Shown: positions 33,596-64,000, counted from the first letter of the stretch. The stretch is DNA of 64,000 nucleotides from Nitrospirota bacterium (GCA_963840455.1 CAWIYV010000010.1:448001-512000); one strand, 5' to 3'. Translations and numbers: made by a program. Notes: generated from the letters alone by a model not told the origin.

Positions 33596-33683
33596 ACTTT
33601 CCGATAAAGCCAAACCTTTCGTGAGGAGGGGGCGGAAAGCACCGGGTCTTCAATCAGGAAGATGGCCGGGCCACCGAAGAAAG
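33596..33683 (+). ncRNA. GEMM-I (c-di-GMP-I class) riboswitch, G20 type
   Basis: CGATAAAGCC-AAACC...GTGA tetraloop...GGCGG-AAAGC..GGGTC...GATGGCCGGGCCACCGA; G at the Vc2 position-20 equivalent (33609). Confidence 0.85.
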
Positions 33684-34747: not shown

Positions 34748-34797
34748 AAGCAGGCAGTAGTAAGCAGTAAGCAGTAAGCAGGAAGCAGTAAGCAGTA
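34748..34797 (+). repeat. Heptamer tandem repeat (AAGCAGT)n
   Basis: ...AAGCAGT AAGCAGT AAGCAGG AAGCAGT AAGCAGT A. Confidence 0.8.
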
Positions 34798-34831
34798 CGT
34801 TGTACCCATGTCGGCTAAGCCGACACACTCT

Positions 34832-34914
34832 ATCCTCCGAAAAGAGTAAACCCATCGCAAGGTGGGGACACAAAGCCAACGGGTCCCGAAAGCGGGACGG
34901 CCGGGCTGCCGGAG
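34832..34914 (+). ncRNA. GEMM-I riboswitch, A20 variant (predicted 3',3'-cGAMP sensing, GEMM-Ib-like)
   Basis: CTCCG-AAAAG-A-GT-AAACCCATC-GCAA-GGTGGG-GACAC-AAAGCC..GGGTCCCG...CGGGACGGCCGGGCTGC-CGGAG; A at the position-20 equivalent (34845). Confidence 0.85.
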
Positions 34915-34940
34915 CAAAAAAAACTGATCTGGAGGATTTA

Positions 34941-36194
34941 ATGAAGATCTACAAATTAAGCCTTATCCTTGTTGCTGTGGCCGCGGTAGTTGTTGGGCTG
35001 AGCGGAACCAGCTTCGCCTTCCATAGCGGCGGCGTCGCCGAATGCGTGGGCTGCCACCAAATGCACGATGCACCAGGCGCCAACCTTCTTATCGCCGCTG
35101 ACCAGAGCTCGACCTGTCTGAGCTGCCATGGCGCAGCAGGCCAGTCCAGCTACCATGTTGCCACCCCCGACGCAGACATGCCCGCGGGTTCGCCGCCAGT
35201 CAATGAAGGCCCCGGCGGTGACTTCGGCTGGCTGCACAAGTCCTATTACTTCACGATCCGTGGTGGATTGACCACCGACCTCGGCGACACCCACGGCCAT
35301 AACATTATCGCTGCTGGCTACACCGGCGGCACTTACGTTGCTGACCCCATCAACGCAACGGCCCCGGGAGGCACGTTCCCGGGAGGCCAGCTCTCCTGCG
35401 TCTCCTGCCATGACCAGCATGGTAAGGGCCGTTGGACGACGGCCGGCACCTATAGCAAGACCTCCGGCGCTATCTACACCTCCGGTTCCTATGGTTCCAT
35501 ACCCTCAACGTTCGGCCCCACGGGCGAACTTTTGTCGACGGGTGTGTACCGCCTGCTCCGTGCTGCCGAGGCTGTTGACGGCGTGACCTTCCCCGCCCTC
35601 CCGCCGGTAGCAGTTGTTCCGAGCACCTACAACAGGTCAGAGTACTTCTTCCAGACCCGCACTGCCTACGGCTCCGGTATGTCAGACTTCTGCGCAACCT
35701 GTCATCCTGACATGCACGACACCGCAGGTATTCTCCGTCACCCGGCCGGCCAGACCATGAGCGGCGCGGTCCAGGGCAACTACAACAGCTATGTGAAAAC
35801 AGGTGCTATGACCGGCTCCGCGACCACCTCGTACCTGTCGCTGGTTCCGTTCGAAGAAGGCCAGGCCTACAGCACTGCCGCCATCGGCGTTCTGAAGAGC
35901 CATGCCCAGATCAACGATTCCAATCTGAACGGCCCGGGCGCTGGTACCGTGCCTGCAACGGCGACCGTAATGTGCCTCTCCTGCCACAGGGCGCATGCGT
36001 CCGGCTGGCCGGAAATGCTTAAGTGGAACCCCGAAGTTACGACCATCACCGTCGCTGGCGCCTATCCTACTGGCAATGACGCAGGCTGGGGCCGCAGCGC
36101 AACGGAAGTATCGAAAGCCTACTATGACAAGAACGTAACGAAGTGGTCCGCCTATCAGCGCCAACTCTGCAACAAGTGCCATGCGAAAGACTAA
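34941..36194 (+). CDS. omcS: OmcS-family hexaheme c-type cytochrome (nanowire subunit), copy 1
   Basis: Signal peptide then FHSGGVAECVGCHQMH; six CXXCH; PGGDFGW, GHNI, YLSLVPFEEG, CLSCHRAHASG, LCNKCHAKD as in Geobacter OmcS; SD GGAGG at 34931. Confidence 0.93.
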   Translation: MKIYKLSLILVAVAAVVVGLSGTSFAFHSGGVAECVGCHQMHDAPGANLLIAADQSSTCLSCHGAAGQSSYHVATPDADMPAGSPPVNEGPGGDFGWLHKSYYFTIRGGLTTDLGDTHGHNIIAAGYTGGTYVADPINATAPGGTFPGGQLSCVSCHDQHGKGRWTTAGTYSKTSGAIYTSGSYGSIPSTFGPTGELLSTGVYRLLRAAEAVDGVTFPALPPVAVVPSTYNRSEYFFQTRTAYGSGMSDFCATCHPDMHDTAGILRHPAGQTMSGAVQGNYNSYVKTGAMTGSATTSYLSLVPFEEGQAYSTAAIGVLKSHAQINDSNLNGPGAGTVPATATVMCLSCHRAHASGWPEMLKWNPEVTTITVAGAYPTGNDAGWGRSATEVSKAYYDKNVTKWSAYQRQLCNKCHAKD

Positions 36195-36216
36195 CGCATG
36201 CTGAAGAAGTAGCGCC

Positions 36217-36251
36217 AGGGAGGATCGGCAGATGCCGGTCCTCCCTTTTTT
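36217..36251 (+). terminator. Intrinsic terminator/stabilising hairpin inside the operon
   Basis: AGGGAGGATCGGCA-GA-TGCCGGTCCTCCCT followed by a T-run. Confidence 0.85.
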
Positions 36252-36345
36252 ATCATCGAACGTGCATTTTCCCGCTGTTTCTGGTAACATGCTGCCTGAA
36301 CCATTCCAGCCCGGTCTTGGCTCACCGAGCGGAATGATTGACCTC

Positions 36346-37632
36346 ATGAAAGTCACCACCATAATTCCGATCATGATGCTCCTGATTCTCTGTATGAGAC
36401 CGGACAACGCCGCGTCCGCCTTTCATGACGGCGGTGTCGGTGCCTGCGATGCCTGCCATTCCATGCATAACGCCTCACCATTAGCAGGCGACAGTCTGTT
36501 GAAGTCATCGGACCCGAGCTCGACCTGTCTCTATTGCCACCAGAATACGGGCGACATCGGACCGACGAGCTACCATGTCAGCACCTCTTTATCCGACATG
36601 CCGCCGGGCGCTCCACCCAAGCAGCTTACCCCGGCCGGCGATTTCGCGTGGTTGAAGAAGACCTTCACCTGGCTACCCAGCGCCAACGGGCTTTTGCAGT
36701 TCAGTTACGGCGACCGGCACGGCCACAATATCATCGCCAATGATTTTCAGTATGCCGTGGACATGACCAACAGCACGGCCCCCGGGGGCGCCTACCCCGC
36801 GTTGAGCCTCACCTGCATCAGCTGTCATGACCCGCACGGCAAATACCGCAGGGACGCAGTCGGCTCGATCGCCACGACCGGCACTCCTATTCAGGGCTCG
36901 GGGTCCTATGCCTCCAGTGCCGGCCCGCAGGCCGGATCCTCGGTCGGCGTGTACCGGCTGTTGGGCGGCAAGAACTATCATCCCAGGAACCTGCTCGGCA
37001 GTTTCGCTTTTCAGAACGACCCGCCTGCTGCCGTCGCTCCGGACGCGTACAACAGGTCCGAGACCGGGACCCAGACCCGCGTGGCCTACGGCTCGGGGAT
37101 GTCCGATTGGTGCCAGAACTGCCATACGACCATGCATACCATCGTCTCATCGGGAACATCAACTATTCCGAAGACCCATCCCGTCGGGAGTCTCGCCAAG
37201 CTAGGACCGACGGTGTCCACCAACTATAATATGTATGTCAAGACCGGAGTCCTCACGGGTATCGTGAACACATCGTTCCTTTCCCTCGTCCCCTTTGAGG
37301 AGGGTACCAGTAATTATTCCGCGCTCAAAGCGCATGCTCGAAGCGATGATTCCTATCTTTTCGGGCCCGATTCGGGCAGCTCCCAAGTGATGTGTCTCAC
37401 CTGCCACCGGGCCCACGCCTCGGGCTGGGACCACGCGACCAGGTGGAACACCAATACGGACCATATCGTCGTCAACGGGTTCTATTCCCAAGATGGCCAA
37501 ACATATCAGCCCTATGGGCAGGGACGCACGGAGCTGGAGGCGCAGAAGGCCTACTACGACATGCGGGCAGGCCGGTTCGCCCTTAATCAGGATACGCTCT
37601 GCCATAAATGCCATGGAGGGGCCCTCCCGTGA
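36346..37632 (+). CDS. OmcS-family hexaheme c-type cytochrome, divergent paralog
   Basis: AFHDGGVGACDACHSMH; six CXXCH; CISCHDPHGKYRR, YNRSETGTQTRVAYGSGMSDWC, CLTCHRAHASG. Confidence 0.92.
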   Translation: MKVTTIIPIMMLLILCMRPDNAASAFHDGGVGACDACHSMHNASPLAGDSLLKSSDPSSTCLYCHQNTGDIGPTSYHVSTSLSDMPPGAPPKQLTPAGDFAWLKKTFTWLPSANGLLQFSYGDRHGHNIIANDFQYAVDMTNSTAPGGAYPALSLTCISCHDPHGKYRRDAVGSIATTGTPIQGSGSYASSAGPQAGSSVGVYRLLGGKNYHPRNLLGSFAFQNDPPAAVAPDAYNRSETGTQTRVAYGSGMSDWCQNCHTTMHTIVSSGTSTIPKTHPVGSLAKLGPTVSTNYNMYVKTGVLTGIVNTSFLSLVPFEEGTSNYSALKAHARSDDSYLFGPDSGSSQVMCLTCHRAHASGWDHATRWNTNTDHIVVNGFYSQDGQTYQPYGQGRTELEAQKAYYDMRAGRFALNQDTLCHKCHGGALP

Positions 37633-37634
37633 CC

Positions 37635-39041
37635 ATGCTCCCTGGAATAAAAAAATATGGCCCTCTCCTTCTTCTGATACTCTGCGGATGCCAGACACTT
37701 CAGCTCCACACGACGGCCATTCGCGAGGACGAAGGCACGGTGTTCTTCTACCTCCAGCCCTTCTCAGGGGGGGCTGAGCGGCTCCGATTCTCCCTCTCGG
37801 CGTTTGCGGCGCTCAAGGATGACGGCACGGAGATTCCGGTGCCCCTCTCGCTCAATGAGTTCAGCAGTATGGTCATGAACAGGCAGAGGCTGATGGCCGA
37901 GGTGCGGCTGCCTGAAGGAAAATACAGGGGCTTTCTCATGCGAATCAAGAGCGCCGCACTCACCACAGAGGGTGGAACGGCCGCGCTCCTCGTGCCGGAG
38001 ACGCCGCATATGATCGCGTTCCCCTTCAGCGTGGAAAAAAGAAAGGCGTTCATCATATCACTGACCCTCCGCTATGACCAATCCCTGCAGGGGGTCAATT
38101 TCAGCCCGGTGTTCCTCGTGGCTATCCCGGCCCGGCCGCTCGTCGCGGTCACGGGGTTTGCCTCCAATGCCGGCATCGACGCCATCACGGTATTTGACAA
38201 GATTCATCTGCAGGCCACGGGCGTCATCGCCACCGGGAGAGGGCCCACGTGTATTGCCCTGGACCAGCGCCTCAAACGGGCCTATGTCGCCCTGGCCGGC
38301 GATAACGCCGTCGAGGTTTTCGATATGGACTCGGAAATCGTTCTCGCCAGAACCATGCTGATGCCGGGAGACGAGCCGCAGGAGATTGCGCTCACTCCTG
38401 ACGGCTTGTCGTTGCTCGTGGCGAATGGTCGTTCGGACACGGTAAGCATCATTGACACCGTGACGATGGGGGAGGTGGGCAGGATCAGTGTCGGCAGATA
38501 CCCCAGCACCCTGGTGATTGACAAAACCGGAACGAAGGCCTTTGTCTTCAACAGGATGTCCGACAATATATCGGTCATTGATATTCCCTACCGGCAGGTC
38601 ATAGGCACGATCAAAACCGGACCGGAACCGCTGCGGGGGCAGTTCAACCGGGCGGGAAGCCTGCTTTACGTGATCCACGCAGCCTATCCCTACCTGTTCG
38701 TCATCGATCCGGCGTCGTTCTCTGTGGTGCGGCGGGAATTTATCGGGATGGGGACGGTCTCCCTCAAGGTCGATACGCGGACCGATCAGATCTACATCGG
38801 CAAAAAGAACGAAACCCTGATTACGGTATATGATCCCGTCTCCTTTGTCCGGGTGAGCTCTATTCCGACCGGGGGGACCGTAACCTTCATGACCATAGAC
38901 GGTGAGACGAACTTTCTTTACCTGCTCATCCCCGAACGAAAGGTCCTCCTGGTCATCAATCTGGCGAGCAAAAGGCCGGTCTCGGAGATCGATGTCAGCG
39001 AAGAACGCCCCGCGTGGATAACCATGATGGGAGAGCGATAG
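37635..39041 (+). CDS. YVTN/YncE beta-propeller lipoprotein
   Basis: Lipobox LCGC; repeats IATGRGP, LLVAN.RSDTVSIID, ISVGRYP, IKTGPEP. Confidence 0.85.
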   Translation: MLPGIKKYGPLLLLILCGCQTLQLHTTAIREDEGTVFFYLQPFSGGAERLRFSLSAFAALKDDGTEIPVPLSLNEFSSMVMNRQRLMAEVRLPEGKYRGFLMRIKSAALTTEGGTAALLVPETPHMIAFPFSVEKRKAFIISLTLRYDQSLQGVNFSPVFLVAIPARPLVAVTGFASNAGIDAITVFDKIHLQATGVIATGRGPTCIALDQRLKRAYVALAGDNAVEVFDMDSEIVLARTMLMPGDEPQEIALTPDGLSLLVANGRSDTVSIIDTVTMGEVGRISVGRYPSTLVIDKTGTKAFVFNRMSDNISVIDIPYRQVIGTIKTGPEPLRGQFNRAGSLLYVIHAAYPYLFVIDPASFSVVRREFIGMGTVSLKVDTRTDQIYIGKKNETLITVYDPVSFVRVSSIPTGGTVTFMTIDGETNFLYLLIPERKVLLVINLASKRPVSEIDVSEERPAWITMMGER

Positions 39042-39042
39042 C

Positions 39043-41343
39043 ATGCGGCGATTGACGTGGTCCAGCCTGCGCCGTGCTCGAAAGGCCCGGTGGTTGATCG
39101 TTCTCGCGGGAACGGCCGGGGTGATGTTTTTTTTTTGGTACGCACCGGCAATGGCTTTAGCTGAAGGGCTCTCGGGGCGTATGAGTTGGGTGTACGCAAC
39201 TACTGATTCCACGTCAACAGAATATTTCACCGGCACGACCACGGACTTTTCATCCCGATCTTTTGCTCAACAGTACAGCCTGACCGCTGACAAGTTCCTC
39301 TATCCGAACCTCAGGCTGTTTGCCTCCGGCCTGTTCCAGAAAGCCGATGCGACCAGCTCGACGAACGGCCAGGGAACATGGGGGGATTCCACGGTCATAC
39401 GGCCGTACATCGACCTTACCTTGAGAACTCCCGTGTTCGCCGTCGGCGTGAATTATAACGCAGTAACGACCGAGACGAAATCCTTGAATGCGCCGACGAT
39501 GACCTTGAAGCACGAGTCCTATGGTGGAATTCTGGGCATGAAACCGGAGGGCCTGCCTACGCTCGACTTGGTGCTGACCAGAAGCTACAATTACGACGAG
39601 AACCGGGTTCTGCAGGATATCGTGAACGACTCGGTGAGCCTCTATTCGCGCTACGATCCGACGAAAACAATCCGGCTGCGGTACCAGGGAAACTATACCG
39701 ATACACAGGACCGCCTCAAGGATGTGGAAAACAAGACCACGGGCAATGACATGAGGATCATGTATGACGATCAATACCTGCGTGACCGGATCATGGTATC
39801 GACATACTATGATTACGGCCACAGTACGACAGAGATCACGTCGAGCGGGAAGGGAACGGTGAATTTCCCGGTCCTCGCAGTTGACGGGCTCTTCCTGAAC
39901 AGCGACAATCTCCTGACGGACCCCCTGCGTTCGTCGCCGTTCCTGATCGACAACACGGCGACCGGCCCTACGAACGCCGCCAACAATATCGGGTCTGCAA
40001 CGTCCGCAGCTTCTCCGCCCGATACAGCGGCCAGAAACATCGGGCTGCAGTTCCCTGCGGCAGTGGAGATGAACACCCTCAACGTATGGGTCTATTCCGT
40101 GTCCGGCGCCACGGTCGATATAGCTGTCCCTGCCTTTCTGCCGGCTCCCGTGGCAGGGTCATTGACGTGGGCGGTGTACACGAGCTCCGATAACCTGAAC
40201 TGGCGGTTGTATCAAACGGGCGTCCCCGCCCCCTATGAGATCGATGTCTCCCGCCCCGGCGTGGGGCGATTCGAGATAACCTTCCCGAACGTGGTCACGA
40301 AATACATCAAGGTCGTCGTCAGTCCTCTTTCGCCGTTCGCGGCAGGAGGACAGGGGAGGGAGTTCCCGGGCATCTATGTGACCGAGCTTCAGGCGTTCAC
40401 CGCCAGATCTGCCGCAGATGTCACCGGGAAGTCCTCAGCAACCACTCAACTTGCAGGCCTGTCCACCAAGGTGATACTTTTGAAAACTCCGGGACTGAAT
40501 TATGATTTTTCCTATTTTTACAATAAGCAGGAAAGCCAGTTTTCCACGACGCTGTATACAACGATGTCGAATGCGCTTTCGGTCCAGCACCGGTTCAACC
40601 CTGTATTTTTCGGATCTGCGCAAGTACAACGGGTCGACGATTCCAGCCCCTCCGGGGATCAGGTCACGTTACAGGCCGGCGGCCAGATCGTGATTGTCCC
40701 CTTGCGGACGCTGAGCCACACCATTGGCGCTTCCAGCTCGACCATACAAAGGTCGACGGGACGGAGCAAGAGTAACGCGGTGACATTGACCAATACCGCC
40801 GAGCTTTACCCCAATATCAATGCCTTCTTGAACGGCGGGCTGAGCAGTAACGTATCGGAGACGGACCAGAAAATGGAGTCCAGGAACTATTCGGCGGGGC
40901 TCAATCTGATCCCGATACAGACATTGAACATCACGCTGAGCTCCGGGGGCCAGACAAGCGATCAATCAGGCGGAGGCGCCCCGGACAGTACGCAGTCCAC
41001 CCGGAGCAACGAGGTTAGCGCGTCGTATTATCCGTTCAAAACCCTGTACCTCTTCGCCTCCCGGAGCGTGAGATCAGGCTCGGGCCAGGCGAGCGACAGG
41101 ATCACGAACTACGGACTCAACTGGGCGCCGTTCCCGGGTGGAGATCTCGTGTTCAATTATTCCTATTTCGAGAACCGGAGGGCCTTTGATGATTCGATTG
41201 ATACGTCATCCATCCCGAGCCTGCGGTGGAATATCACCAGGCGGGCCTATGCGACTGTAGCGTATAACTCTACCAAGAACACTTCTAGAATAGGGCAGTC
41301 AACGACGAGGATAGAATCTGCGTCGTTGAATGTGATCTTTTAG
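39043..41343 (+). CDS. Predicted outer-membrane beta-barrel with inserted discoidin-like domain
   Basis: Signal peptide, Ser/Thr/Tyr-rich amphipathic strands, C-terminal SLNVIF; central WAVYTSSDNLNW...TKYIKVV module. Confidence 0.7.
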   Translation: MRRLTWSSLRRARKARWLIVLAGTAGVMFFFWYAPAMALAEGLSGRMSWVYATTDSTSTEYFTGTTTDFSSRSFAQQYSLTADKFLYPNLRLFASGLFQKADATSSTNGQGTWGDSTVIRPYIDLTLRTPVFAVGVNYNAVTTETKSLNAPTMTLKHESYGGILGMKPEGLPTLDLVLTRSYNYDENRVLQDIVNDSVSLYSRYDPTKTIRLRYQGNYTDTQDRLKDVENKTTGNDMRIMYDDQYLRDRIMVSTYYDYGHSTTEITSSGKGTVNFPVLAVDGLFLNSDNLLTDPLRSSPFLIDNTATGPTNAANNIGSATSAASPPDTAARNIGLQFPAAVEMNTLNVWVYSVSGATVDIAVPAFLPAPVAGSLTWAVYTSSDNLNWRLYQTGVPAPYEIDVSRPGVGRFEITFPNVVTKYIKVVVSPLSPFAAGGQGREFPGIYVTELQAFTARSAADVTGKSSATTQLAGLSTKVILLKTPGLNYDFSYFYNKQESQFSTTLYTTMSNALSVQHRFNPVFFGSAQVQRVDDSSPSGDQVTLQAGGQIVIVPLRTLSHTIGASSSTIQRSTGRSKSNAVTLTNTAELYPNINAFLNGGLSSNVSETDQKMESRNYSAGLNLIPIQTLNITLSSGGQTSDQSGGGAPDSTQSTRSNEVSASYYPFKTLYLFASRSVRSGSGQASDRITNYGLNWAPFPGGDLVFNYSYFENRRAFDDSIDTSSIPSLRWNITRRAYATVAYNSTKNTSRIGQSTTRIESASLNVIF

Positions 41344-41358
41344 CATGGAGGGATTGTC

Positions 41359-41925
41359 GTGAATGTCAAAAAAATCATATCGCTGTTAATGCTCGTCGGT
41401 CTTGCAGCCTGTGCCCGTCCGACAAGCGGCGTGTTCCGCGACCAGAACATGGATTTTGGGGCGATCCAGAACATTGCCGTAATGCCCCTTTCGAACCAGT
41501 CGCGGGAGCAGACCGCTGCTGACCGGGTGAGGGACGTATTCATCAATAAGCTCTTATCCACCGGCGCGGCGTATGTACTTCCTATCGGTGAGGTGAAGCG
41601 GGGGATCGCGAGGGCGGGGATCTCCGATGCGACGGCCCCCTCGCCCGAGGAAATCGTAAGGTTTGGGGGCATTGTGAAGGCTGACGTCGTGATCGTCGGT
41701 TCGGTAAAGGAGTATGGTGAGGTGAGGTCAGGCACCTCTTCCTCCACGTCCATCGCCCTGAGCATGCAGATGCTCGAAGCGCAGACGGGTCGGGTTGTAT
41801 GGGCCGCATCGTCCACCAAGGGAGGTATCACATTCGGCGACCGTCTCTTAGGCGGGGGCGGCGAACCTATGAATGTAGTTACCGAGAAGGCTGTTGATGA
41901 CATTATCGATAAACTGTTTAAATAG
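41359..41925 (+). CDS. GNA1162/CsgG-like lipoprotein
   Basis: Lipobox LAAC, IAVMPLSN, ADVVIVGSVKEY, MLEAQTGRVVW. Confidence 0.8.
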   Translation: MNVKKIISLLMLVGLAACARPTSGVFRDQNMDFGAIQNIAVMPLSNQSREQTAADRVRDVFINKLLSTGAAYVLPIGEVKRGIARAGISDATAPSPEEIVRFGGIVKADVVIVGSVKEYGEVRSGTSSSTSIALSMQMLEAQTGRVVWAASSTKGGITFGDRLLGGGGEPMNVVTEKAVDDIIDKLFK

Positions 41926-51836: not shown

Positions 51837-51919
51837 GCAGTTATTGTAATTTTTTTTGTTCTAGGATATAATGCTCCAATTTCGTGCATATTGTCATGTG
51901 ACACGCAATGAGAGGTGAA

Positions 51920-53725: not shown

Positions 53726-53753
53726 AAAACCGTGAGATAGTCTGAGGAGAACC

Positions 53754-55733: not shown

Positions 55734-57019
55734 AAAATAAAGGCATGAATGTATGGTACTGGCCGTTCCCGGCGCTTATTGCGGTCTGTGTTCTCGGTAT
55801 CATAGCATCCGCCGGTGCGCAGGAAAATAAATTCAGACTGAAGCCGGGAGCGGAGGGGAAGAATTGCCTGACCTGTCATGTGACGTTCGAGGACAAGCTT
55901 AAGCAGCCTTTTGTCCATTCGCCGGTAAAGTCCAGAAAATGCGCAAGCTGTCATAATCCCCATGCGTCTTCCCATGGCAAGCTCCTTACAGCGGATCCTA
56001 ATAAGATCTGCTTCACCTGCCACCCCGATGTGATATCCAAAAAGGCACGCAGTTCCCATGTGGTCGTGGTAGAGGGAAATTGTATCAAATGTCACGATCC
56101 TCACGCAGCAAAGAACAAGTTCAACCTGCTGGAGGCAGGGAACAAACTCTGTTTCGGATGTCATAAGGATATGGGCGATACCCTAGCAAAGGTGAAATTC
56201 AAGCACAATCCCGTGGAGCGGGGATGCATCAACTGTCACAACCCCCACTCTTCTGATCAGGCCGCCTCGCTGTTAAAGGACGACGTGCCGGCTCTCTGCC
56301 TGAAGTGCCACAAGACGGCAACGCCTTCGTTCCAGAAACAGCACATGAACTATCCCGTAGCGAAAGCGCGCTGCACGAGCTGTCATGATCCTCATGGTTC
56401 TGATAGGGGAGGGGTGCTCTACACGAACGTCCACCGGCCCGTTGCCAATAAGATGTGCAATCAGTGCCATGAAGACCCTACTTCCCCGAAGCCCTTTGCG
56501 ACCAAAAAGACGGGATACGAGCTGTGCCGGGGATGCCATAGCACGATGGTCAATGAGGCACTCAGCAAGAACCGGATCCATTGGCCTGCGTTGGACAAAA
56601 CAGGCTGTATCCATTGCCACAGTCCCCATGCAAGCCCGGTAAAGGGGCTTCTCAAGGCCAAGATGATCGACCTGTGCAGCGAATGTCACCCCGATGCCAT
56701 TGAGAGGCAGAAACGCTCTCAAACAAAACACGCTCCGATAAAAGACGGCATGTGCACCACCTGCCATTCGCCCCATGCCTCGGATAATGTGTTCCTGTTC
56801 AAGCAGGCATCCACGATCGACCTGTGCCTGTCCTGTCATAACTATGGGAAACACTCAACGCATCCCCTTGGAGCAAAGGCCCTCGACCCGAGAAATAACA
56901 ATGTCATGGTCCAGTGCACAAGCTGCCATGGGACCCACGGGACGGAGAACAAAAAAATGCTTTACTATCCGACGACGACGGAACTGTGCGTCCAGTGCCA
57001 TGCAGAACATAGGAGATAA
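55730..57019 (+). CDS. 16-heme periplasmic c-type cytochrome
   Basis: ATGA overlap with the previous gene; signal peptide; 16 CXXCH counted. Confidence 0.93.
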   Translation: MKNKGMNVWYWPFPALIAVCVLGIIASAGAQENKFRLKPGAEGKNCLTCHVTFEDKLKQPFVHSPVKSRKCASCHNPHASSHGKLLTADPNKICFTCHPDVISKKARSSHVVVVEGNCIKCHDPHAAKNKFNLLEAGNKLCFGCHKDMGDTLAKVKFKHNPVERGCINCHNPHSSDQAASLLKDDVPALCLKCHKTATPSFQKQHMNYPVAKARCTSCHDPHGSDRGGVLYTNVHRPVANKMCNQCHEDPTSPKPFATKKTGYELCRGCHSTMVNEALSKNRIHWPALDKTGCIHCHSPHASPVKGLLKAKMIDLCSECHPDAIERQKRSQTKHAPIKDGMCTTCHSPHASDNVFLFKQASTIDLCLSCHNYGKHSTHPLGAKALDPRNNNVMVQCTSCHGTHGTENKKMLYYPTTTELCVQCHAEHRR

Positions 57020-57023
57020 TGCC

Positions 57024-57914
57024 ATGATGAAAAATATCGTTCTGATAGCGATCCTGCTGCTGCCTGCTCCGGCCCTGAGCGCCGAGATGATGAACTTTCA
57101 GCGTGTTGCCTCGATATATGCCGATGCTGGAGGAATTAAAATCAATCAGCCCGAAGGAGTTGCCTGCAGGGATAAATCCCTTCTTCTCGTGTCCGATACT
57201 GCAAACGGCCGTCTTCAGCCCTATACTCTCCAGGATGACGGGACCATAAAGCCGGGACCGGGGGCTGAGATCAAAGTGCCCTATCCCTTGCATGTTCGTC
57301 TGAATTCCAAGGGAGATATCTTTGTGCTCGACGGCAAGCAGCGCAAGATCCTCCGCATGAGCCCCAATGGCGAGCCCAAAGGATCATTCGAACCCGAGGG
57401 GATGCCTTTGCCGACAGCATGGATTCCGAAAAATTTTGCGATCGATACGAAGGATACGGTGTACATTCTTGATGTATTTTCTTCACGAGTGCTCATCGTG
57501 AGCCCGGAAGGAAAGTTCCAAAGGCAGATCGCGCTCCCGAATGCTGATGGTTTTTTCTCTGACCTGGCCGTGGATCCCCAGGGCACGATCTTTATACTCA
57601 ACAGCATCGCTGCTTCGGTCTATTCTGCTGGTCCCGATGACAAGGCATTTTCCCCGCTGACAAAGGGCCTCAAAGACTATGTCACGTTCGCGACCACGCT
57701 TGCAGCAGACAAACAATTTCTCTACATGGTAGATCAGTTCGGCAGTGGTGTCGTGGTTCTGGGGAAGGACGGCTCCTTTAAAGGTCGCAAGCTCAGAATG
57801 GGCTGGAAGGAGGGAGAACTTCTCTATCCTTCCGATATTTGCCTGAACGAGAAGGGGGAAATATTCATCGCGGACCGCGGGAACAACCGCATCCAGATGT
57901 TCAGGAAAGAATGA
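57024..57914 (+). CDS. Exported NHL-repeat beta-propeller protein
   Basis: AGGAG RBS, signal peptide, QPEGVA, SDTANGR, GWKEGELLYPSDI, IADRGNNRIQMF. Confidence 0.88.
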   Translation: MMKNIVLIAILLLPAPALSAEMMNFQRVASIYADAGGIKINQPEGVACRDKSLLLVSDTANGRLQPYTLQDDGTIKPGPGAEIKVPYPLHVRLNSKGDIFVLDGKQRKILRMSPNGEPKGSFEPEGMPLPTAWIPKNFAIDTKDTVYILDVFSSRVLIVSPEGKFQRQIALPNADGFFSDLAVDPQGTIFILNSIAASVYSAGPDDKAFSPLTKGLKDYVTFATTLAADKQFLYMVDQFGSGVVVLGKDGSFKGRKLRMGWKEGELLYPSDICLNEKGEIFIADRGNNRIQMFRKE

Positions 57915-57984
57915 ACTTCGATAGTTCCGGCAGCCTGGTATCACCTTCTTGGAACCGGGGAAATGTCTGAAGACCTCTCTTTGC

Positions 57985-58023
57985 GAGAGCGCAGCTTACG
58001 TGATGCGCTCTCGTTCTTCTTTT
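57985..58023 (+). terminator. Probable intrinsic terminator of the nanowire operon
   Basis: GAGAGCGCA...TGCGCTCTC followed by GTTCTTCTTTT. Confidence 0.6.
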
Positions 58024-58075
58024 GGGGATCGTCGGTCATCATACCGCCTGATTCGAACTCGTTAAGGGCAAGATT

Positions 58076-58726
58076 ATGAAAGAGAAATCATTCCGGACAG
58101 GGACCCGGGGAGAGAATCGAAAAGGCATGGTCATCTCGCTTGTCGCGGTCCTGCTGGTCATTGCTTTTTCAAGTATCACGTATTCGAGAAACATACTCTG
58201 GCAGGATTCGGTAACGTTGTGGCAGGATACAACACTCAAAAGTCCGAAAAAGTTCAGACCTCGGTTTAACCTGGCGAAAGAATACGAAGCACGAGGGCAA
58301 TTGGACCTGGCGGCCGAGAACTATCGAGCGTCCATCGATCTGAAACCAGATGATGCAATGGCTCATAACAACCTAGGGAATGTGTACATGAACCAGAGGC
58401 GCCTCGGGGAAGCGATCGAGGAGTTTCGCACGGCCGTCCATCTCAACCCGGACGCTCCGTTGACCCGCGATAACCTTGGCTATGTTTACTTCAAGCAAGG
58501 TCGGCCTGACGAAGCCATCAAGGAGTATCAAGCGGCAATAAAGCTCGCACCGGATGTTGCCGAGATTCATAACAATCTCGGGTACGTCTATTTCACCCAG
58601 GGACGTTTCGAAGACGCAGCGGAACAATATCAGATCGCTTTGAAGCTCAAGCCGGACTTCCCCGCGGCACTCGAGAACATTCATTTGCTCGATCGGGTAT
58701 CGAACCAGAAGCAACTGCGGAAATGA
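58076..58726 (+). CDS. Membrane-anchored TPR protein (C-terminal half of the TMTC-like architecture)
   Basis: One TM, RNILWQD..TLWQD...KSP.K.RP, four TPRs. Confidence 0.85.
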   Translation: MKEKSFRTGTRGENRKGMVISLVAVLLVIAFSSITYSRNILWQDSVTLWQDTTLKSPKKFRPRFNLAKEYEARGQLDLAAENYRASIDLKPDDAMAHNNLGNVYMNQRRLGEAIEEFRTAVHLNPDAPLTRDNLGYVYFKQGRPDEAIKEYQAAIKLAPDVAEIHNNLGYVYFTQGRFEDAAEQYQIALKLKPDFPAALENIHLLDRVSNQKQLRK

Positions 58727-59089
58727 ACGAGATTACGCACTATCTGAGGGCGATGTATGTATATCGATCGAAACCGCATCGAGAAACCATACGAGGACCT
58801 GGAAGGAAACGAAACAAGGTTCGACCGCGAGCCTCGGACGTGTTAAGGTCGCAGGTGAGCACAACGAGAAACCTCAAATAATCCATCATGGTTCATCCGC
58901 AATCACTGCCTTGTCGTCCTCTTTGGCATCTCTGCAGATTACGTTCGATAAGGAGGATGATAATGCCAATCTTCCTGAAAACCCATATAGTCCTCGCACT
59001 ACTGGCAGCTCATTGAAATATATTCCAGCGGTACCTTCCGGAAGCAAGGGTTTGAGAAACCGCAGGTTCTGGAAGAGTATTCTTATCAA

Positions 59090-59207
59090 TTGAATCCAGG
59101 AGCGAGCGCATTCCCCGTAGCTTGCTGCGGGGTTAGCGAGCGATGAGAATAAATAGTACTACCTTGAGGATCGAAGATTCCCTGCAGCTTGCTGCAGGGA
59201 GCTTCAA
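59090..59207 (-). mobile_element. Non-autonomous palindromic miniature element, copy 3
   Basis: TTGAA...TTCAA ends; hairpins CCCCGTAGCTTGCTGCGGGG and CCCTGCAGCTTGCTGCAGGG. Confidence 0.78.
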
Positions 59208-59360
59208 TGCCCCGCACCTTGCTGTACCGCGGTTGTTTTCAGGGGCAACGAAAGCACTCACTCGCAAAACGATCATACCAGCAGGTTGGGTCTTCATCAG
59301 TTTTATCCGATGAACATGTTTAAGAATTTCAATGTGAAGAAAACACGGCACGTTCAATAT

Positions 59361-61235
59361 ATGCTCGAACTCCCTCATGGTTTAAAAAAGCACAAGCCTA
59401 TTCTTGACAATATACGGCATCACATCATACCTATAATTGTTCTTGTTGGCGCGACCTTTGCTGTATATGCCGGTACGCTCGAACATGATTTTCTCTTGAA
59501 TTGGGATGACAGCTTGTATGTCACGGACAATGAAACGATACGAGGTTTGACATGGGAACACGTGAAGGAGGCATTCGCCCGATTCTATGTAGGAAATTAC
59601 GCTCCGATCCAGATCATCTCATACATGGTGGACTATTCCGTTGGGGGACTGCGCCCTAGTGTTTATATTTTTACTAATGTTCTTTTGCATGTCACAAACG
59701 GCATCCTATTCTATTTGCTGCTTTTTCGACTTACCCAACGCAAGGTAATCGGCTTTCTTGCCGCATTTATTTTCCTGCTCCACCCTGTTCAGGTCGAGTC
59801 AGTTGCCTGGATATCCCAGCGGAAAAATCTGCTCGCCATGTTTTTCTTCCTTGCAGCTTTTCACTTCTATATTTCCTATCGGCTTGCAGAGAAAACAAAG
59901 GGCACGTTATCGTATATATTTTCTGTTGCGGCATTTATGGTCGCCCTTCTGTCAAAAACGGTTGCGATCATTCTCCCTCTTGTTCTCTTTCTTTACGACC
60001 TTTGTTATCGTGATAAGACCGACCGGCCATCATGGCTGATCAATAAGATCCCTTTTATATCCATTGCAGGCGTTGCGCTCTTGGTCGCGTTAAAAAGCCA
60101 GTTGCCGGAATATGACGGAGGGCGGATATCGTATGCCATTGAAGGTCCGCTGGGTGTTTTCTACACCATGCTCACGGTCCTTGTCCGCTATTGTAAGATC
60201 ATTTTCTGGCCGATGGAATTAAGTGCTCTGTATATGCCGCCCATGAAAGTAAGAATAGATTCAGCGGTTGTGTTGTCCGCGTTGTTTGCTGTTCTGTTGA
60301 TCATTCTGGGATGGTATCTTTACCGGAGAAGAAAAGAGCTTTTCTTCTGGTACGCACTTTTTTTTGTCGGCCTCCTTCCCGTTTCCCAGATCGTGCCCCT
60401 GGTCACGCTCATGAATGATCGTTATCTCTATTTTCCCCTGTTGGGAGCCGCAGCGTTTTTTGGACTCATGGCGCTCGCTTTTACCGATGATGTCCATAAT
60501 TTACGAAAAAGAAGCATAGCGGTCATTCTTGGTCTTTTGATCATACTGCTTCCCTGGCTTTCGTGGCAGAGAACGTCTGTTTGGAGCAATGACCTGTCTT
60601 TATGGAGGGACGCGACAAGTAAAACCCCGGTTTCGCCCCTCGCCTGGAATGGTCTCGGCATGTCCTACGTTGATGCGGGGAGGTTTGAAGAAGCGGCCAG
60701 CGCCTTCTTAAAGGCATTATCGATTGACCCTGATTACGAGCTGGCGCTCAACAATATTGGCGGCCTGTACAATAGCCGTGGGAAAATAGCGGAGGCTCGG
60801 CCTTTTTTGCTCAAGGCCACGAAGTTATTTCCTGAAAACAGCAATAGCTTGATGAACTTGGGAATCAATTATTATGTTTCCCATGATTATCAAAACGCCG
60901 AACTGATTTTTAAAAAAGTGCTGGTGTTGAAACCCCAGTCAGCCGATGCTCTCTCGCGTTTAGGCGATGTCTATCTAAGGATGAGAAAACCTGAGATGGC
61001 CCGGGATTATTTTCAAAAAGCGACCGAACTTGAAGGCACAACGGCAGATCTGGAGTATCGTCTGGCCTGCGTCGAATCTCTCAGCAGACATCCCCATGAA
61101 GCGTTAGGGCGTCTTGAGTCAGCATTGAACAAGGGATATAACGACTACCAGAACATCGCACGGGACGCGTGCCTGGATCCTCTTCGGGGCCATAGTGGTT
61201 TCCAGTTTCTTATGAGAAAGTATTTTGGCAAGTGA
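59361..61235 (+). CDS. TMTC-like GT-C membrane glycosyltransferase with C-terminal TPR (start uncertain)
   Basis: FLLNWDD, NYAP, LHPVQVESVAWISQRK, LLSK, NDRYLYFP, VW...LW, TPRs. Confidence 0.88.
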   Translation: MLELPHGLKKHKPILDNIRHHIIPIIVLVGATFAVYAGTLEHDFLLNWDDSLYVTDNETIRGLTWEHVKEAFARFYVGNYAPIQIISYMVDYSVGGLRPSVYIFTNVLLHVTNGILFYLLLFRLTQRKVIGFLAAFIFLLHPVQVESVAWISQRKNLLAMFFFLAAFHFYISYRLAEKTKGTLSYIFSVAAFMVALLSKTVAIILPLVLFLYDLCYRDKTDRPSWLINKIPFISIAGVALLVALKSQLPEYDGGRISYAIEGPLGVFYTMLTVLVRYCKIIFWPMELSALYMPPMKVRIDSAVVLSALFAVLLIILGWYLYRRRKELFFWYALFFVGLLPVSQIVPLVTLMNDRYLYFPLLGAAAFFGLMALAFTDDVHNLRKRSIAVILGLLIILLPWLSWQRTSVWSNDLSLWRDATSKTPVSPLAWNGLGMSYVDAGRFEEAASAFLKALSIDPDYELALNNIGGLYNSRGKIAEARPFLLKATKLFPENSNSLMNLGINYYVSHDYQNAELIFKKVLVLKPQSADALSRLGDVYLRMRKPEMARDYFQKATELEGTTADLEYRLACVESLSRHPHEALGRLESALNKGYNDYQNIARDACLDPLRGHSGFQFLMRKYFGK

Positions 61236-61271
61236 ACCACTCCCCGGCCTTTAGGCCGGGAAGTGATTCAC
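61232..61271. repeat. IS200/IS605-end-like palindrome overlapping the stop codon
   Basis: GTGAACCACTCCCCGGCC-TTTA-GGCCGGGAAGTGATTCAC. Confidence 0.6.
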
Positions 61272-61405
61272 GGGGTGTTGGCTTTCTAAAATGGCTTAAG
61301 ACATTAGGGGACGTATTTAGAGCACCTTTTGCTTGTACATGATGGCTATTATTGTGCAGTCCGTGTGTCAGGAGAGAGCTGAAGCAGATCCCGCCCGGTA
61401 AAAAA

Positions 61406-61452
61406 CCTTCACACGGCAGGGACCACTGGTTCAAACCCAGTAGCGCCCACCA
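61406..61452 (+). pseudogene. 3' half of tRNA-Val(CAC), att-like remnant
   Basis: CCTT-CAC-ACGGCAGGGACC-ACTGGTTCAAACCCAGT-AGCGCCC-A-CCA; 5' half absent. Confidence 0.75.
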
Positions 61453-61468
61453 GAAATATCAAGGGGTT

Positions 61469-61620
61469 AGCTTACCGGAGAGTCATCTTAATGTCTTTGT
61501 GACACAGCAGATCCTTTACTGCTGTGAGGTCTGCTCACGACATTACCAGGTGACTACCAAAGGTATGCAGACCGTGAAAGTGAAAATCCGCAATGTCTGC
61601 CCGTTTCAATACTCTCCAAG
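61469..61620 (-). pseudogene. Degenerate tyrosine integrase C-terminal fragment
   Basis: Minus strand reads WRVLKRADIADFHFHGLHTFGSHLVMS*ADLTAVKDLLCHKDIKMTLR*A versus the consensus FHDLRHTFAS.L...G.DL..V..LLGH....MT.RYA. Confidence 0.85.
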
Positions 61621-62167
61621 AGGAGCCAGCACAATCCATAAAGTCCAGCTTTCCAATTAGTGCAATGACTCGGTTACGTCAATGGTCAACTATTACTCTC
61701 CTAATTTTAGCCATGCGGTAACATACTCCACGATGTATACTTTATTTTATTGATATTACAATAATTAATAGCTGTGTCGAAATGTTGACTTTGACGCTTT
61801 ATAATAGGTTCTGCTATTTTAGTTTTACTATCTGCTATTAACCTACCTGTTGCTGATCTTTTCTCGCCACAGTCAATCGCTGTTTGCGTAAAATCCTAGC
61901 GGCTATTTCTTCGTAAAGACGCATCCCAGGTTAATGAAGGACAACGTAAATTAGATACGGATCCTATGCATAATATTTGATAATTGCGCTTCGAATGCAG
62001 TTCGAGACAGAATTCGCGATCTCATTATTAGTTAAGATATTTCTTATATTTTATGACCATCCCATATAGGTCAAATGACCATTTTCTATCGGTTGTTTCG
62101 CCAGACATGCAGATAGTATATATCCAACAATAGTCGCATTGTATTGTTATTAAAGAAGTTGCAACTA

Positions 62168-62183
62168 AGGCATGATTGTTGCT
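62168..62183 (+). promoter_or_regulatory. Sigma54 -24/-12 promoter for omcS copy 3
   Basis: AGGCATGATTGTTGCT immediately upstream of the tandem riboswitches. Confidence 0.72.
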
Positions 62184-62202
62184 TTTTTCAATACATAAGT
62201 AG

Positions 62203-62320
62203 GTATCGATAAAGCCAAACCCACCGCGAGGTGGGGACGGAAAGCAAACGGATCTTGATAAACCACGCAAGATGGCCGAGCTGCCGAAGGATATATCCTG
62301 AGGTATGCTTGGCCTTTTTT
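62203..62320 (+). ncRNA. GEMM-I riboswitch, G20 type, with overlapping terminator (tandem copy 1)
   Basis: CGATAAAGCC-AAACCCACC-GCGA-GGTGGG-GACGG-AAAGC...GATGGCCGAGCTGCCGAA; GGCCGAGC pairs with GCTTGGCC, which is followed by TTTTTT. Confidence 0.88.
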
Positions 62321-62408
62321 ATTCCAGCTGAAGGAGCGGACCCTAGAAGTATCAACCACCCCAGGAACGAGCGCCGGGGAAAAGATAATCTGGATGCAAT
62401 ATAAATAG

Positions 62409-62528
62409 GTTGCGACAAAGCCAAACCCATCGTGAGATGGGGACGGAAAGCAAACGGATCTTGATAAACCACGCAAGATGGCCGAGCTGCCGAAGGATAT
62501 ATCCTGAGGTATTGCTTGGCCTTTTTTT
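62409..62528 (+). ncRNA. GEMM-I riboswitch, G20 type, with overlapping terminator (tandem copy 2)
   Basis: Direct repeat of the previous unit at offset 206; CGACAAAGCC-AAACCCATC-GTGA-GATGGG-GACGG-AAAGC; terminator ends in TTTTTTT. Confidence 0.88.
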
Positions 62529-62656
62529 ATTCCAGCGGAAGGAGCTGGCCCTAGAAGTGGTCAACAACCCAATGGACGAGCGCTGGGGAAAATGTTTGGA
62601 AGCAACGTCACAGCATTCGTGGAAAGGCTTGGAATAAGTGTTAGGTGGATTTATAC

Positions 62657-63913
62657 ATGACGTTCACGGTTAGCTTGATTATCATTATTACTGCGCTCGT
62701 GACCTGCGGGTTGGGCATGGATGCATTCGCTTTCCATAGCGGCGGCGTCGCCGAATGCGTGGGCTGCCACCAGATGCACGATGCACCAGGCGCCAACCTT
62801 CTGATCGCCGTTGATCAGAGCTCGACCTGTCTTGATTGCCATGGCGCATCAGGCCAGTCCAGCTACCATGTTGCCACCCCCGATGCGGACATGCCCGCGG
62901 GATCGCCGCCGGTCAATGAGACTCCGGGCGGTGACTTCGGCTGGCTGCACAAGTCCTATTACTTCACGATCCGCGGTGGATTGACGACCGACCTCGGCGA
63001 GACCCACGGCCATAACATCATTGCTGCAGGCTACACAGGCGGCACGTACGCTGTTGACCCAAAGAACGCAACGGCCCCGGGCGGCACGTTTCCGTCAGCC
63101 CAGCTCAACTGCATCTCCTGCCATGACCAGCATGGTAAGGGCCGTTGGACGACAGCCGGCACCTATAGCAAGACCTCCGGCGCTATCTACACCTCCGGTT
63201 CGTATGGTTCCATCCCGTCAACTTTCGGCCCCACAGGCGAACTTTTGTCGACGGGCGTATACCGCCTGCTCCGTGCTATGGATACTGTTGACGGCGTGAC
63301 CTTCCCTGCGCTCCCGCCGGTAGCAGTGGTTCCGAGCACCTACAACAGGTCAGAGTACTTCTTCCAGACCCGCACTGCCTACGGCTCCGGCATGTCCGAC
63401 TGGTGCAGCACCTGCCATCCTGACATGCACACCGGAAACGGAAATACGGGGGGGATTATCAGGCATCCGACAGATCGAAAGCTGACGGGGTTGACCGTCA
63501 GGAACTACAACAACTATACAAAGAGCGGCGTCATGACCGGTAATGCGGCCACCTCCTACCTGTCGCTCGTTCCGTTCGAAGAAGGCCTGACCTACAGCAC
63601 AGCGAACATCAACACTTTGAAGTCCCATGCAAAGACGGATGATTCTTACCTGAACGGTCCAGACCAGACCAATGGTTCGACAACGGTGTTCTGCCTTTCC
63701 TGCCACAGGGCGCATGCGTCCGGCTGGCCGAAAATGCTTAAGTGGAACCCCGAAGTTACGACCATCACCCTTGCTGGCGCCTATCCTACCGGGAATGACG
63801 CGGGCTGGGGCCGAACCTTGACCGAGGTATCCAAAGCCTATTACGATAAGAACGTAACGAGGTGGTCCGCCTATCAGCGCTCGCTCTGCAATAAATGCCA
63901 TGCGAAAGATTGA
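62657..63913 (+). CDS. omcS: OmcS-family hexaheme cytochrome, copy 3 (close paralog of 34941-36194)
   Basis: AFHSGGVAECVGCHQMH, six CXXCH, LCNKCHAKD; long stretches identical to copy 1; start could be GTG 62645. Confidence 0.93.
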   Translation: MTFTVSLIIIITALVTCGLGMDAFAFHSGGVAECVGCHQMHDAPGANLLIAVDQSSTCLDCHGASGQSSYHVATPDADMPAGSPPVNETPGGDFGWLHKSYYFTIRGGLTTDLGETHGHNIIAAGYTGGTYAVDPKNATAPGGTFPSAQLNCISCHDQHGKGRWTTAGTYSKTSGAIYTSGSYGSIPSTFGPTGELLSTGVYRLLRAMDTVDGVTFPALPPVAVVPSTYNRSEYFFQTRTAYGSGMSDWCSTCHPDMHTGNGNTGGIIRHPTDRKLTGLTVRNYNNYTKSGVMTGNAATSYLSLVPFEEGLTYSTANINTLKSHAKTDDSYLNGPDQTNGSTTVFCLSCHRAHASGWPKMLKWNPEVTTITLAGAYPTGNDAGWGRTLTEVSKAYYDKNVTRWSAYQRSLCNKCHAKD

Positions 63914-64000
63914 CTCCCAAATCTTCATAGGATCAAAAAACACATAAGGCGGGAGGACAGTCTCCGGCCTTTGGTTTTTGTCACAGCATCAACCTTCTCA

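Follow-up and report, generated by a model that had tools for sequence, protein, structure and literature searches.

A20 and tandem G20 GEMM-I leaders before sister omcS genes in a Nitrospirota bacterium, predicted to differ in riboswitch mechanism and possibly in second messenger

The 64,000-nt stretch of DNA considered here, from an uncultured Nitrospirota bacterium (GCA_963840455.1, CAWIYV010000010.1:448001-512000; "the window" means this whole stretch) belongs to a host genome, G000, of 14 contigs (C10 and so on) and 100% completeness with five OmcS-family genes. Copies 1, 2 and 3 lie in the window and copy 4 on the same contig beyond its end (Table 1). Copies 1, 3 and 4 are sister genes with 75-82% protein identity and are preceded by GEMM-I riboswitch aptamers of different types. 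Copies 1 and 4 each have one start-proximal aptamer with A at the equivalent of position G20 of the Vc2 aptamer (A20), and copy 3 has two tandem aptamer-terminator units with G at that position (G20).

With copy 1 as query, residues 27-417 align to chain residues 1-407 of PDB 6EF8/6NEF (E 1e-93). The haem-binding residues C35/C38/H39, C59/C62/H63, C153/C156/H157, C251/C254/H255, C345/C348/H349 and C410/C413/H414 as well as H42 are invariant in the four aligned copies. H42 is the histidine of the CHxMH motif, which we take to ligate the haem of the neighbouring subunit in the OmcS filament. As judged from sequence, copies 1 and 3 are OmcS homologues. An earlier note on this DNA had called them near-identical omcS paralogs; the paralogy stands, whereas an identity of 81% in protein (339/418) and 84.9% in DNA over 1202 nt is less than near-identity, with the divergence concentrated at residues 241-360. 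Copies 3 and 4 are each 82% identical to copy 1 in the four-copy protein alignment. All three open reading frames (ORFs) are intact, and the ratio of nonsynonymous to synonymous change (dN/dS) is 0.28 between copies 1 and 3 and 0.28-0.44 across the three copies. The fifth OmcS-family gene (C11:42394-43632) is 65% identical to copy 3 and has no GEMM-I aptamer near it, the sole GEMM-I match on contig C11 being at 231325. Outside G000, the nearest OmcS locus (L061, 75% identity) is also from Nitrospirota.

Aptamers were identified by running Rfam cmscan (Infernal) over the window at gathering thresholds. Four GEMM-I aptamers were found (59.9-67.6 bits, E 1e-11 to 8e-14), all with RF03167 ("c-di-GMP-I-GGC", gathering score 59) as best model and all also matching RF01051 of clan CL00126 (55.2-63.5 bits, cut-off 35). 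The Vc2 G20 equivalent is model position 10, the nucleotide just 5' of the two-base-pair helix preceding AAAC. In the printed Infernal alignments this place is taken by A at 34845 and by G at 33609, 62214 and 62420, in exact agreement with the earlier note, which had placed A at 34845 before copy 1 and G at 62214 and 62420 before copy 3; the G20 aptamer at 33600, at the head of the NHL gene just before copy 1, was absent from it. All four aptamers have A at the A47 equivalent and C at the C92 equivalent. Those at 33600, 62205 and 62411 have the pocket G/A/C typical of cyclic di-GMP (c-di-GMP) aptamers, and the one at 34836 has A/A/C instead. The latter and the aptamer of copy 4, with A at the G20 equivalent, are candidates for the GEMM-Ib kind; around position 20 the copy-1 aptamer reads G19-A20-G21-U22.

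Whether the window aptamers belong to a "GGC variant" was judged by a proxy, the consensus G of RF03167 in the first unpaired place that follows the P1a closing pair. All four have A there, and on this proxy the description was rejected; the best score on RF03167 is probably due to overall similarity to the seed sequences of that model. The window aptamers are treated here as ordinary, putative G/A/C and A/A/C pockets. The P1a/P1b two-helix fold of GEMM-I is supported by compensatory changes: of the 18 predicted pairs, 12 include sequences with both sides changed when 22 aptamers of OmcS loci are compared, in an alignment fitted to a model built from the aptamers of G000 itself, which favours the structure.

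Table 1. Positions of the omcS genes, their leaders and associated features (window coordinates unless a contig of G000 is given).
Feature	Position	Strand	Remarks
GEMM-I aptamer, G20 (33609)	33600..33679	+	heads the NHL gene of module 1; 60.8 bits, E 7e-12
NHL/beta-propeller-like secreted protein gene	33730..34692	+	320 aa; NCBIfam ScyF NHL model E 2.7e-14, below cut-off
Predicted anti-Shine-Dalgarno AUCCUCC	34832..34838	+	5' strand of P1 plus two extra bases; pairs with 34931-34937 in the centroid fold
GEMM-I aptamer, A20 (34845)	34836..34914	+	pocket A20/A47/C92; 59.9 bits against 59, E 1.2e-11; RF01051 63.5 bits against 35
Shine-Dalgarno GGAGGAU of copy 1	34931..34937	+	ends 3 nt before the ATG at 34941
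omcS copy 1	34941..36194	+	417 aa, six CXXCH motifs
Strong intrinsic terminator downstream of copy 1	36217..36246	+	13 pairs, 9 of them G-C, then T run
omcS-family copy 2 (omcT-like)	36346..37632	+	44% identical to copy 1, without own aptamer
Left direct repeat (resembles 3' part of a tRNA-Val gene)	61381..61466	+	L134:225-310
Tandem aptamer 1, G20 (62214)	62205..62289	+	pocket G/A/C; 67.3 bits, E 9e-14
Terminator 1	62274..62320	+	the 3' part of aptamer 1 forms its 5' arm GGCCGAGCUGCC; then T run; free energy -27.7 kcal/mol, z -5.5, 0/200 shuffles as good
Tandem aptamer 2, G20 (62420)	62411..62495	+	67.6 bits, E 8e-14
Terminator 2	62480..62528	+	overlaps the 3' part of aptamer 2; free energy -26.1 kcal/mol, z -4.4, 0/200 shuffles as good
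omcS copy 3	62657..63913	+	418 aa, six CXXCH motifs, own signal peptide
Right direct repeat	C10:512931-513016 (L134:3775-3860)		about 1 kb past the window end
omcS copy 4, own A20 aptamer	C10:527250-528488		gene and leader region 527134-528491; 15 kb past the window

The leader of copy 3 has the make-up of a tandem riboswitch, as two complete aptamers precede the gene and each of them has an expression platform, a hairpin with a T run behind it. Since the 5' arm of the terminator is the 3' part of the aptamer, a ligand-stabilised aptamer would exclude the terminator. Ligand binding would close P1 and thereby prevent the terminator from forming, and because this would happen twice, the two units are predicted to act as independent, c-di-GMP-dependent transcriptional ON switches in series, which may give a steeper response with low leak.

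Before copies 1 and 4 a different mechanism is predicted. The A20 aptamer ends 26 nt ahead of the start codon at copy 1 and 22 nt ahead of it at copy 4, with no T run. In the copy-1 leader AUCCUCC is the exact complement of the Shine-Dalgarno sequence GGAGGAU, and the two pair in the centroid fold of copy 1 and in the minimum-free-energy fold of copy 4. Without ligand, the 5' strand of P1 would hold the ribosome-binding site; with ligand, this strand would be taken into P1 and the site freed. From these folds, the A20 leaders of copies 1 and 4 are likely translational ON switches. Copies 1 and 4 each have a single aptamer with a predicted preference for 3',3'-cGAMP (cyclic GMP-AMP), and this aptamer may also accept c-di-GMP.

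Start-proximal aptamers are found at many other omcS genes. A covariance model built from 25 of the 27 aptamers of G000 and searched in 73 OmcS loci from many phyla gave 22 aptamer matches, 21 of which sit 16-109 nt before an OmcS homologue, so that 21/73 sampled loci have such an aptamer. With the same model, none was found within 3 kb upstream in the named Geomonas and Citrifermentans OmcS loci (L095, L097, L108, L123). The typical omcS-proximal leader reads ...CCGGAG-N(9-25)-GGAGGAU-N(3-6)-AUG, and most of the leaders listed could pair the anti-Shine-Dalgarno and Shine-Dalgarno sequences. Three loci (L080, L082, L105) have CUCCUCC with GGAGGAG in place of AUCCUCC/GGAGGAU, which is thin evidence for one compensatory event that may have kept this pairing.

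The expected ligands are based on published work on position 20. G20 pairs with the G-alpha base of c-di-GMP; in cGAMP riboswitches A stands there, A14 of Gs1761 corresponding to G20 of Vc2 (PMC6140456). The position is the main published determinant of preference between c-di-GMP and cGAMP (PMC6140456, PMC9481103), in line with the G20/A20 specificity rule invoked by the earlier note, and the selectivity of Gs1761 for cGAMP over c-di-GMP is about 1200-fold (PMC6456294). The A20 form is taken to predict cGAMP-biased rather than cGAMP-exclusive sensing, because the G20A mutant of Vc2 binds both ligands and several natural A20 aptamers and Gs1761 also take c-di-GMP (PMC6140456). A split between biofilm and particle-contact lifestyles would be carried over by inference from Geobacter to a Nitrospirota host.

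The history of the three sister genes can be read from the limits of their homology. Module 1 (33793-36254: NHL gene, spacer, A20 aptamer, omcS, terminator) and module 4 are 88.5% identical over 2470 nt and appear to be a segmental duplication in which the leader was retained. Homology between copies 3 and 1 begins only at 35013 (codon 25) and runs to the stop codon, and the leader and signal peptide of copy 3 are unrelated to those of copy 1. A maximum-likelihood tree of 30 aptamer-led OmcS proteins contains the clade (copy4,(copy1,copy3)) with supports 96/99 and 96/90. Because of the breakpoint at codon 25, the unrelated leader and this placement, copy 3 is best regarded as a recent derivative with a newly acquired 5' end. 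Its leader consists of a 206-nt unit (aptamer, terminator, spacer) present twice (62195-62383 and 62401-62592, 90.1% identity over 192 nt), the aptamer-terminator part of which is 74-84% identical to leaders at 15 other sites in G000. This dispersed aptamer-terminator family stands mostly before genes for secreted, lipoprotein-like or repeat proteins, and at C4:224976 and C6:5025 the copies are identical, downstream gene included.

Copy 3 also lies in a segment of about 3.55 kb bracketed by tRNA-Val-like direct repeats, which holds an AT-rich stretch upstream of copy 3, the tandem riboswitches, copy 3 and a 192-aa lipoprotein-like ORF. The two repeats have a mean column identity of 88% over 88 alignment columns; the repeat match is 89% over 55 nt (E 1.9e-8), and identity to the tRNA-Val(cac) gene C10:394315-394389 is 87% over 47 nt. 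A further tRNA-Val-like fragment (C10:388807-388851) lies 5.5 kb from that tRNA gene. No integrase-sized ORF was found inside the repeat-flanked segment. The repeat-flanked cassette and the codon-25 limit of homology support a leader swap, and together with the dispersed leader family and the OmcS tree they favour the "duplication plus leader exchange" proposed in the earlier note.

In G000 as a whole there are 27 GEMM-I aptamers, 22 with G20 and 5 with A20; a search of five same-genus genomes gave 3-9 in each. Of the 22 G20 aptamers, 15 have a T run no more than 110 nt away. Both forms occur together at C9:281781-282360 (minus strand), where an A20 aptamer (281781-281869) comes some 400 nt after a G20 aptamer (282281-282360, then a T run). 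This mixed tandem precedes the gene for a 676-aa repeat-rich lipoprotein and adjoins two GGDEF genes (C9:275738, C9:276721) and a G20 aptamer (C9:277765). Outside G000, 27 distinct omcS-proximal aptamers comprise 19 G20 and 8 A20 forms, with position 20 read by eye (a regular expression misread GCC-type aptamers and L064). The A20 forms come from Schekmanbacteria (L064), Nitrospirota (L100, L067), Desulfuromonadaceae (L090) and the genomes G007, G023 and G024 (twice); G20 is found in the same-genus genomes G002 and G003 and in L061.

A cGAMP-responsive leader requires a source of cGAMP, and the earlier note had proposed looking for a GacA-like Hypr GGDEF synthase. No canonical one was found; among the 23 GGDEF domains of G000, the Asp344/Ser348 position is occupied by Ser in three. 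A pair of GAF-GGDEF paralogs, C11:420801-421865 (-) and C7:435292-436407 (-) (L055, L056), accounts for two of these, and they combine the Hypr Ser and Tyr residues with a GGEEF motif. The best PDB match of the C11 paralog is the Hypr GGDEF structure 6D9M (E 1.6e-34), on which its Ser falls at Ser348 and its LNYR at FNYR (Tyr304, the non-Arg cross-dimer residue); both paralogs carry these motifs. A non-Arg residue at the cross-dimer position is a published rule for Hypr GGDEFs (PMC6456294). The pair thus has the Ser348 and Tyr304 equivalents and GGEEF in place of GGDE[F/Y]. Ser/GGEEF genes are present in 23 of 24 family relatives (the exception is 63% complete) and in 0/16 genomes of other families in the phylum, and Ser and GGEEF are kept at all 30 loci examined in family relatives.

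The third Ser-type protein, of 468 aa, is a transmembrane (TM)-HAMP protein by reading of its sequence, with ...GYAHGS..., GGDDF and no EAL or HD-GYP domain (C7, L265:1233-2639, minus strand). Full-length homologues (36-37% identity, E ~1e-73 to 1e-78) are present in 5/5 Geobacteraceae/Desulfuromonadaceae genomes searched, and the same Ser/GGDDF motifs were found by regular expression in three of them (two Geomonas, one Citrifermentans). Its features agree with those given for GSU1937, likewise a TM-HAMP protein with GGDDF and the sole other Ser348 GGDEF in Geobacter sulfurreducens (PMC8835794), a comparison made with the description and not the sequence of GSU1937. Deletion of GSU1937 lowered a cGAMP reporter by about 25% on fumarate and about 70% on Fe(III) citrate, and one GSU1937 fusion construct made some cGAMP (PMC8835794). 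In G000 a source of cGAMP is plausible and would lie in such non-canonical Ser-type GGDEF proteins.

Copies 1 and 4 each stand behind an NHL gene headed by a G20 aptamer, and the order G20 aptamer, NHL gene, A20 aptamer, omcS is seen in modules 1 and 4 and twice in the relative G024. No Pfam family matched the NHL gene product at 1e-5. From the head aptamer to 33793 the two modules lack continuous homology, and the NHL leader of module 1 (33680-33792) has lost its terminator (fold 33652-33745, z -0.5); its module-4 counterpart has one (z -5.4). No terminator-like or sigma-70-like promoter site was flagged between the NHL stop codon and the A20 aptamer; sigma-70 promoter scans yielded about as many sites as expected from shuffled sequence, none of them usable as a start site. 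Right after the NHL stop codon lies a small ORF with a strong ribosome-binding site (AAAGGAGGTGA; 34721-34777 in module 1, L057:15046-15132 in module 4; 18 and 28 codons). The two small ORFs share their first seven residues, MPSENKK, and a heptamer repeat (GCAGTAA-like, at ~34752-34795) follows in module 1.

RNA contigs bear on these genes to a limited extent, as the runs held 0.05-0.19 of the sampled words, the contigs are those of relatives and depth cannot rank genes. Over 33500-36400, four metatranscriptome runs from two studies gave contigs covering the A20 aptamer and the coding part and none beyond ~36215 (a weak hint), and one 397-nt contig from X19 (34838-35230) joins aptamer and coding region. 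The summed contig depth is low over the NHL gene and rises more than 10-fold from bin 34664-34760 to bin 34761-34857 (soil metatranscriptomes X4 and X12), a pattern that hints at a separate transcription start for copy 1. Over 61900-64000, the short contigs from three soil metatranscriptomes and one wetland DNA run cover only the conserved part of the coding region. At 62726 those that match copy 3 continue into signal-peptide sequence of the copy-1/4 type, and none joins the copy-3 leader to its coding region; because of these loose ends, they say nothing on copy-3 expression.

Downstream of copy 1, which heads it, a long envelope/electron-transfer cluster (37608-61235) encodes a beta-propeller of the YVTN/YncE kind, a protein of 766 aa that matched no family, two giant proteins with Calx-beta repeats (1464 and 1930 aa), a SurA-like peptidyl-prolyl isomerase, an NHL protein, TPR proteins and two large multihaem cytochromes, in which 12 and 8 doubled-CXXCH hits were counted.

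Taken together, the sister paralogs are very probably gated by mechanistically different riboswitch leaders. Our preferred reading, with a probability of about 0.5, is that A20 translational riboswitches (copies 1 and 4) and tandem G20 transcriptional riboswitches (copy 3) control sister omcS genes. That the paralogs read different messengers in the cell is at best an even bet. The other serious possibility, which we hold to be less probable, is that all leaders sense c-di-GMP and A20 only weakens affinity, so that copies 1 and 4 (low-affinity, translational) and copy 3 (two high-affinity, transcriptional switches) would differ in threshold and steepness. A number of points count for this one-messenger explanation or otherwise against the reading we prefer. 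Several natural A20 aptamers are bispecific, A20 being necessary and not sufficient, and a protonated adenine lets even Gs1761 bind c-di-GMP (PMC6140456); G. sulfurreducens has an OmcST riboswitch with a reported sensitivity to both ligands (PMC6456294); and predicted "cGAMP" genes rose in a Geobacter metallireducens strain with high c-di-GMP (PMC12285248). Among the 23 GGDEF domains of G000 there is no canonical Hypr Ser/GGDE[F/Y] enzyme, the Rec-GGDEF GacA included, and a Ser348/GGEEF combination is reported to be inactive (GacA D374E) and to be absent from the natural Ser/Thr enzymes surveyed (PMC6456294). The GAF-Ser/GGEEF proteins are either an exception to the published rule or not cyclases. 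No SMODS hit (PF18144) and no DncV-like hit (PF21654) was obtained in G000, the latter profile being silent in control genomes too. All eight HD-GYP proteins caught by a regular expression carry R-x-[YF]-K/R, and none has RxxQ/N, the form proposed for cGAMP phosphodiesterases (10.1101/600031). The translational mechanism, for its part, is supported by folding and by one covarying group of three related sequences. We equate the position of the RxxQ/N motif with R314/K317 of PmGH.

The distribution of position 20 bears on this too. On the 30-row OmcS tree the A/G label needs 8 changes, 7 of them forced by well-supported branches and one being the leader replacement of copy 3; shuffled labels need 8.5 on average, and 225-236 of 500 shuffles are as low. 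With so many changes, position 20 of omcS leaders appears evolutionarily labile, which fits frequent rewiring and, should both forms serve c-di-GMP, near-neutral drift just as well. GGDEFs of the Ser type were found in 3/4 genomes with A20 leaders and 5/10 with G20 leaders, which is no association (GGDEF hits at E<=1e-25; 4/24 loci unparsed for A20 and 6/56 for G20; 9 matches without a locus), and a Schekmanbacteria metagenome-assembled genome with an A20 omcS leader (G041) has no Ser-type GGDEF among 4 hits, 3 of them parsed. Inside the host's own family there is no co-occurrence contrast, because Ser/GGEEF genes are nearly universal there. Against a single messenger, however, A20 is kept in 5/27 aptamers of G000 and in the omcS leaders of G007, G023 and G024, the three Ser-type GGDEF-family genes are conserved, one of them like a protein with genetic evidence for cGAMP, and for Gs1761 a strong selectivity for cGAMP is reported. 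If the NHL gene and omcS were co-transcribed, copies 1 and 4 would need both inputs, the G20 head aptamer gating transcription and the A20 aptamer translation; "c-di-GMP AND second input" would then stand against "c-di-GMP only" at copy 3, a contrast compatible with either view of the ligand. The shared gene order, the lack of a flagged site after the NHL stop codon and the terminator of the module-4 head aptamer speak for such two-input control, but we consider it unlikely, since the head aptamer of module 1 has lost its terminator, the depth rise before the A20 aptamer, a weak hint from contigs of relatives, suggests a start of its own, and, in other phyla, the 3 kb upstream of most omcS-proximal aptamers contain no second one. 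Finally, copy 3 might be a silent passenger, a recently inserted cassette whose gene and leader are unused, so that the contrast would have no physiological meaning. The tRNA-Val-derived repeats, the AT-rich stretch upstream and the absence, in the three soil metatranscriptomes, of any contig joining leader and coding region would fit, yet these runs may lack the organism (word shares 0.05-0.19), the ORF is intact with all haem motifs kept and dN/dS of 0.28 against copy 1, and both aptamers score above the gathering threshold with intact pockets and terminators; this makes a passenger quite improbable.

Our reading, in which A20 and tandem G20 leaders divide the sister genes, has precedents for most of its parts. 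The GEMM-I/Ib riboswitch of omcS-omcT in G. sulfurreducens likewise has a GEMM-I aptamer in the omcS leader, and here too an omcT-like paralog and an NHL-type gene adjoin. Presumably G. sulfurreducens also has an NHL gene beside omcS. The present case differs, as compared with published descriptions of the Geobacter system, by the Nitrospirota host, by three close paralogs in place of one, by the tandem G20 units before one of them and by the lack of a GacA-type enzyme. The link between GEMM and omcS has been known since the motif was described (PMC1950547), and OmcST expression falls 2-3-fold without the cGAMP synthase GacA (PMC6456294). The cGAMP riboswitch Gs1761 (pgcA; PDB 4YAZ) shares the GEMM-I fold and A at the G20 equivalent, A14 (PMC6140456), but differs from the copy-1 aptamer in the bases around position 20 and reportedly acts through a terminator (PMC6456294), whereas the copy-1 leader has none and is predicted to gate the ribosome-binding site.

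Tandem c-di-GMP-I riboswitches have the same architecture as copy 3, two aptamer and platform units before one gene; 347 doublets have been catalogued and are thought to sharpen the response (PMC9481103). What sets copy 3 apart is only its gene, an omcS paralog with sister copies behind the other leader type. Desulfobacca acetoxidans has a seven-riboswitch region with highly similar GEMM-I aptamers that differ at the G/A specificity position (PMC9481103). By in-line probing its G forms strongly favour c-di-GMP, and an A form gained affinity for cGAMP with perhaps a slight loss for c-di-GMP (PMC9481103). Unlike the omcS leaders here, those aptamers are paired with adenosylcobalamin riboswitches and do not precede paralogous genes. 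The GAF-GGDEF pair of G000 shares the Ser348 and Tyr304 equivalents with the Hypr GGDEFs GacA and GacB, and its GAF-GGDEF architecture is also that of Myxococcus xanthus GacB (10.1101/600031), but both proteins have GGEEF instead of GGDEF.

A GEMM aptamer before omcS, A20/G20 specificity, tandem c-di-GMP-I switches and G/A sister aptamers in one genome are already known. New are the host phylum, the three sister genes split between translational A20 and tandem transcriptional G20 leaders, the fact that the mechanism of the swap can be seen, and the unusual set of enzymes. A literature search found no description of such paralog wiring and, among the papers listed, none joining OmcS, Nitrospirota and riboswitch. 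A bolder version of these ideas seems doubtful to us: a two-messenger nanowire programme without the textbook enzyme, in which the Ser/GGEEF clade, the GSU1937-like protein or both would make the cGAMP that opens translation of copies 1 and 4 at their A20 aptamers, c-di-GMP would switch copy 3 on digitally at its two serial G20 terminators, and position 20 would have flipped repeatedly across phyla to rewire nanowire genes.

The loci described here extend the GEMM-omcS link to Nitrospirota and several other phyla. Either the published "Goldilocks" rule is contradicted by the conserved Ser/GGEEF clade, or this clade is that of a non-catalytic receptor. Should all leaders sense c-di-GMP, the sister genes would still be a clean case of paralogs with different dose-responses and ordinary riboswitch biology. 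If the leaders read different signals, they would form a compact natural experiment in which sister genes differ mainly in riboswitch type, and a partition of extracellular-electron-transfer genes between c-di-GMP and cGAMP would become testable outside Geobacter with four short RNAs and point swaps.

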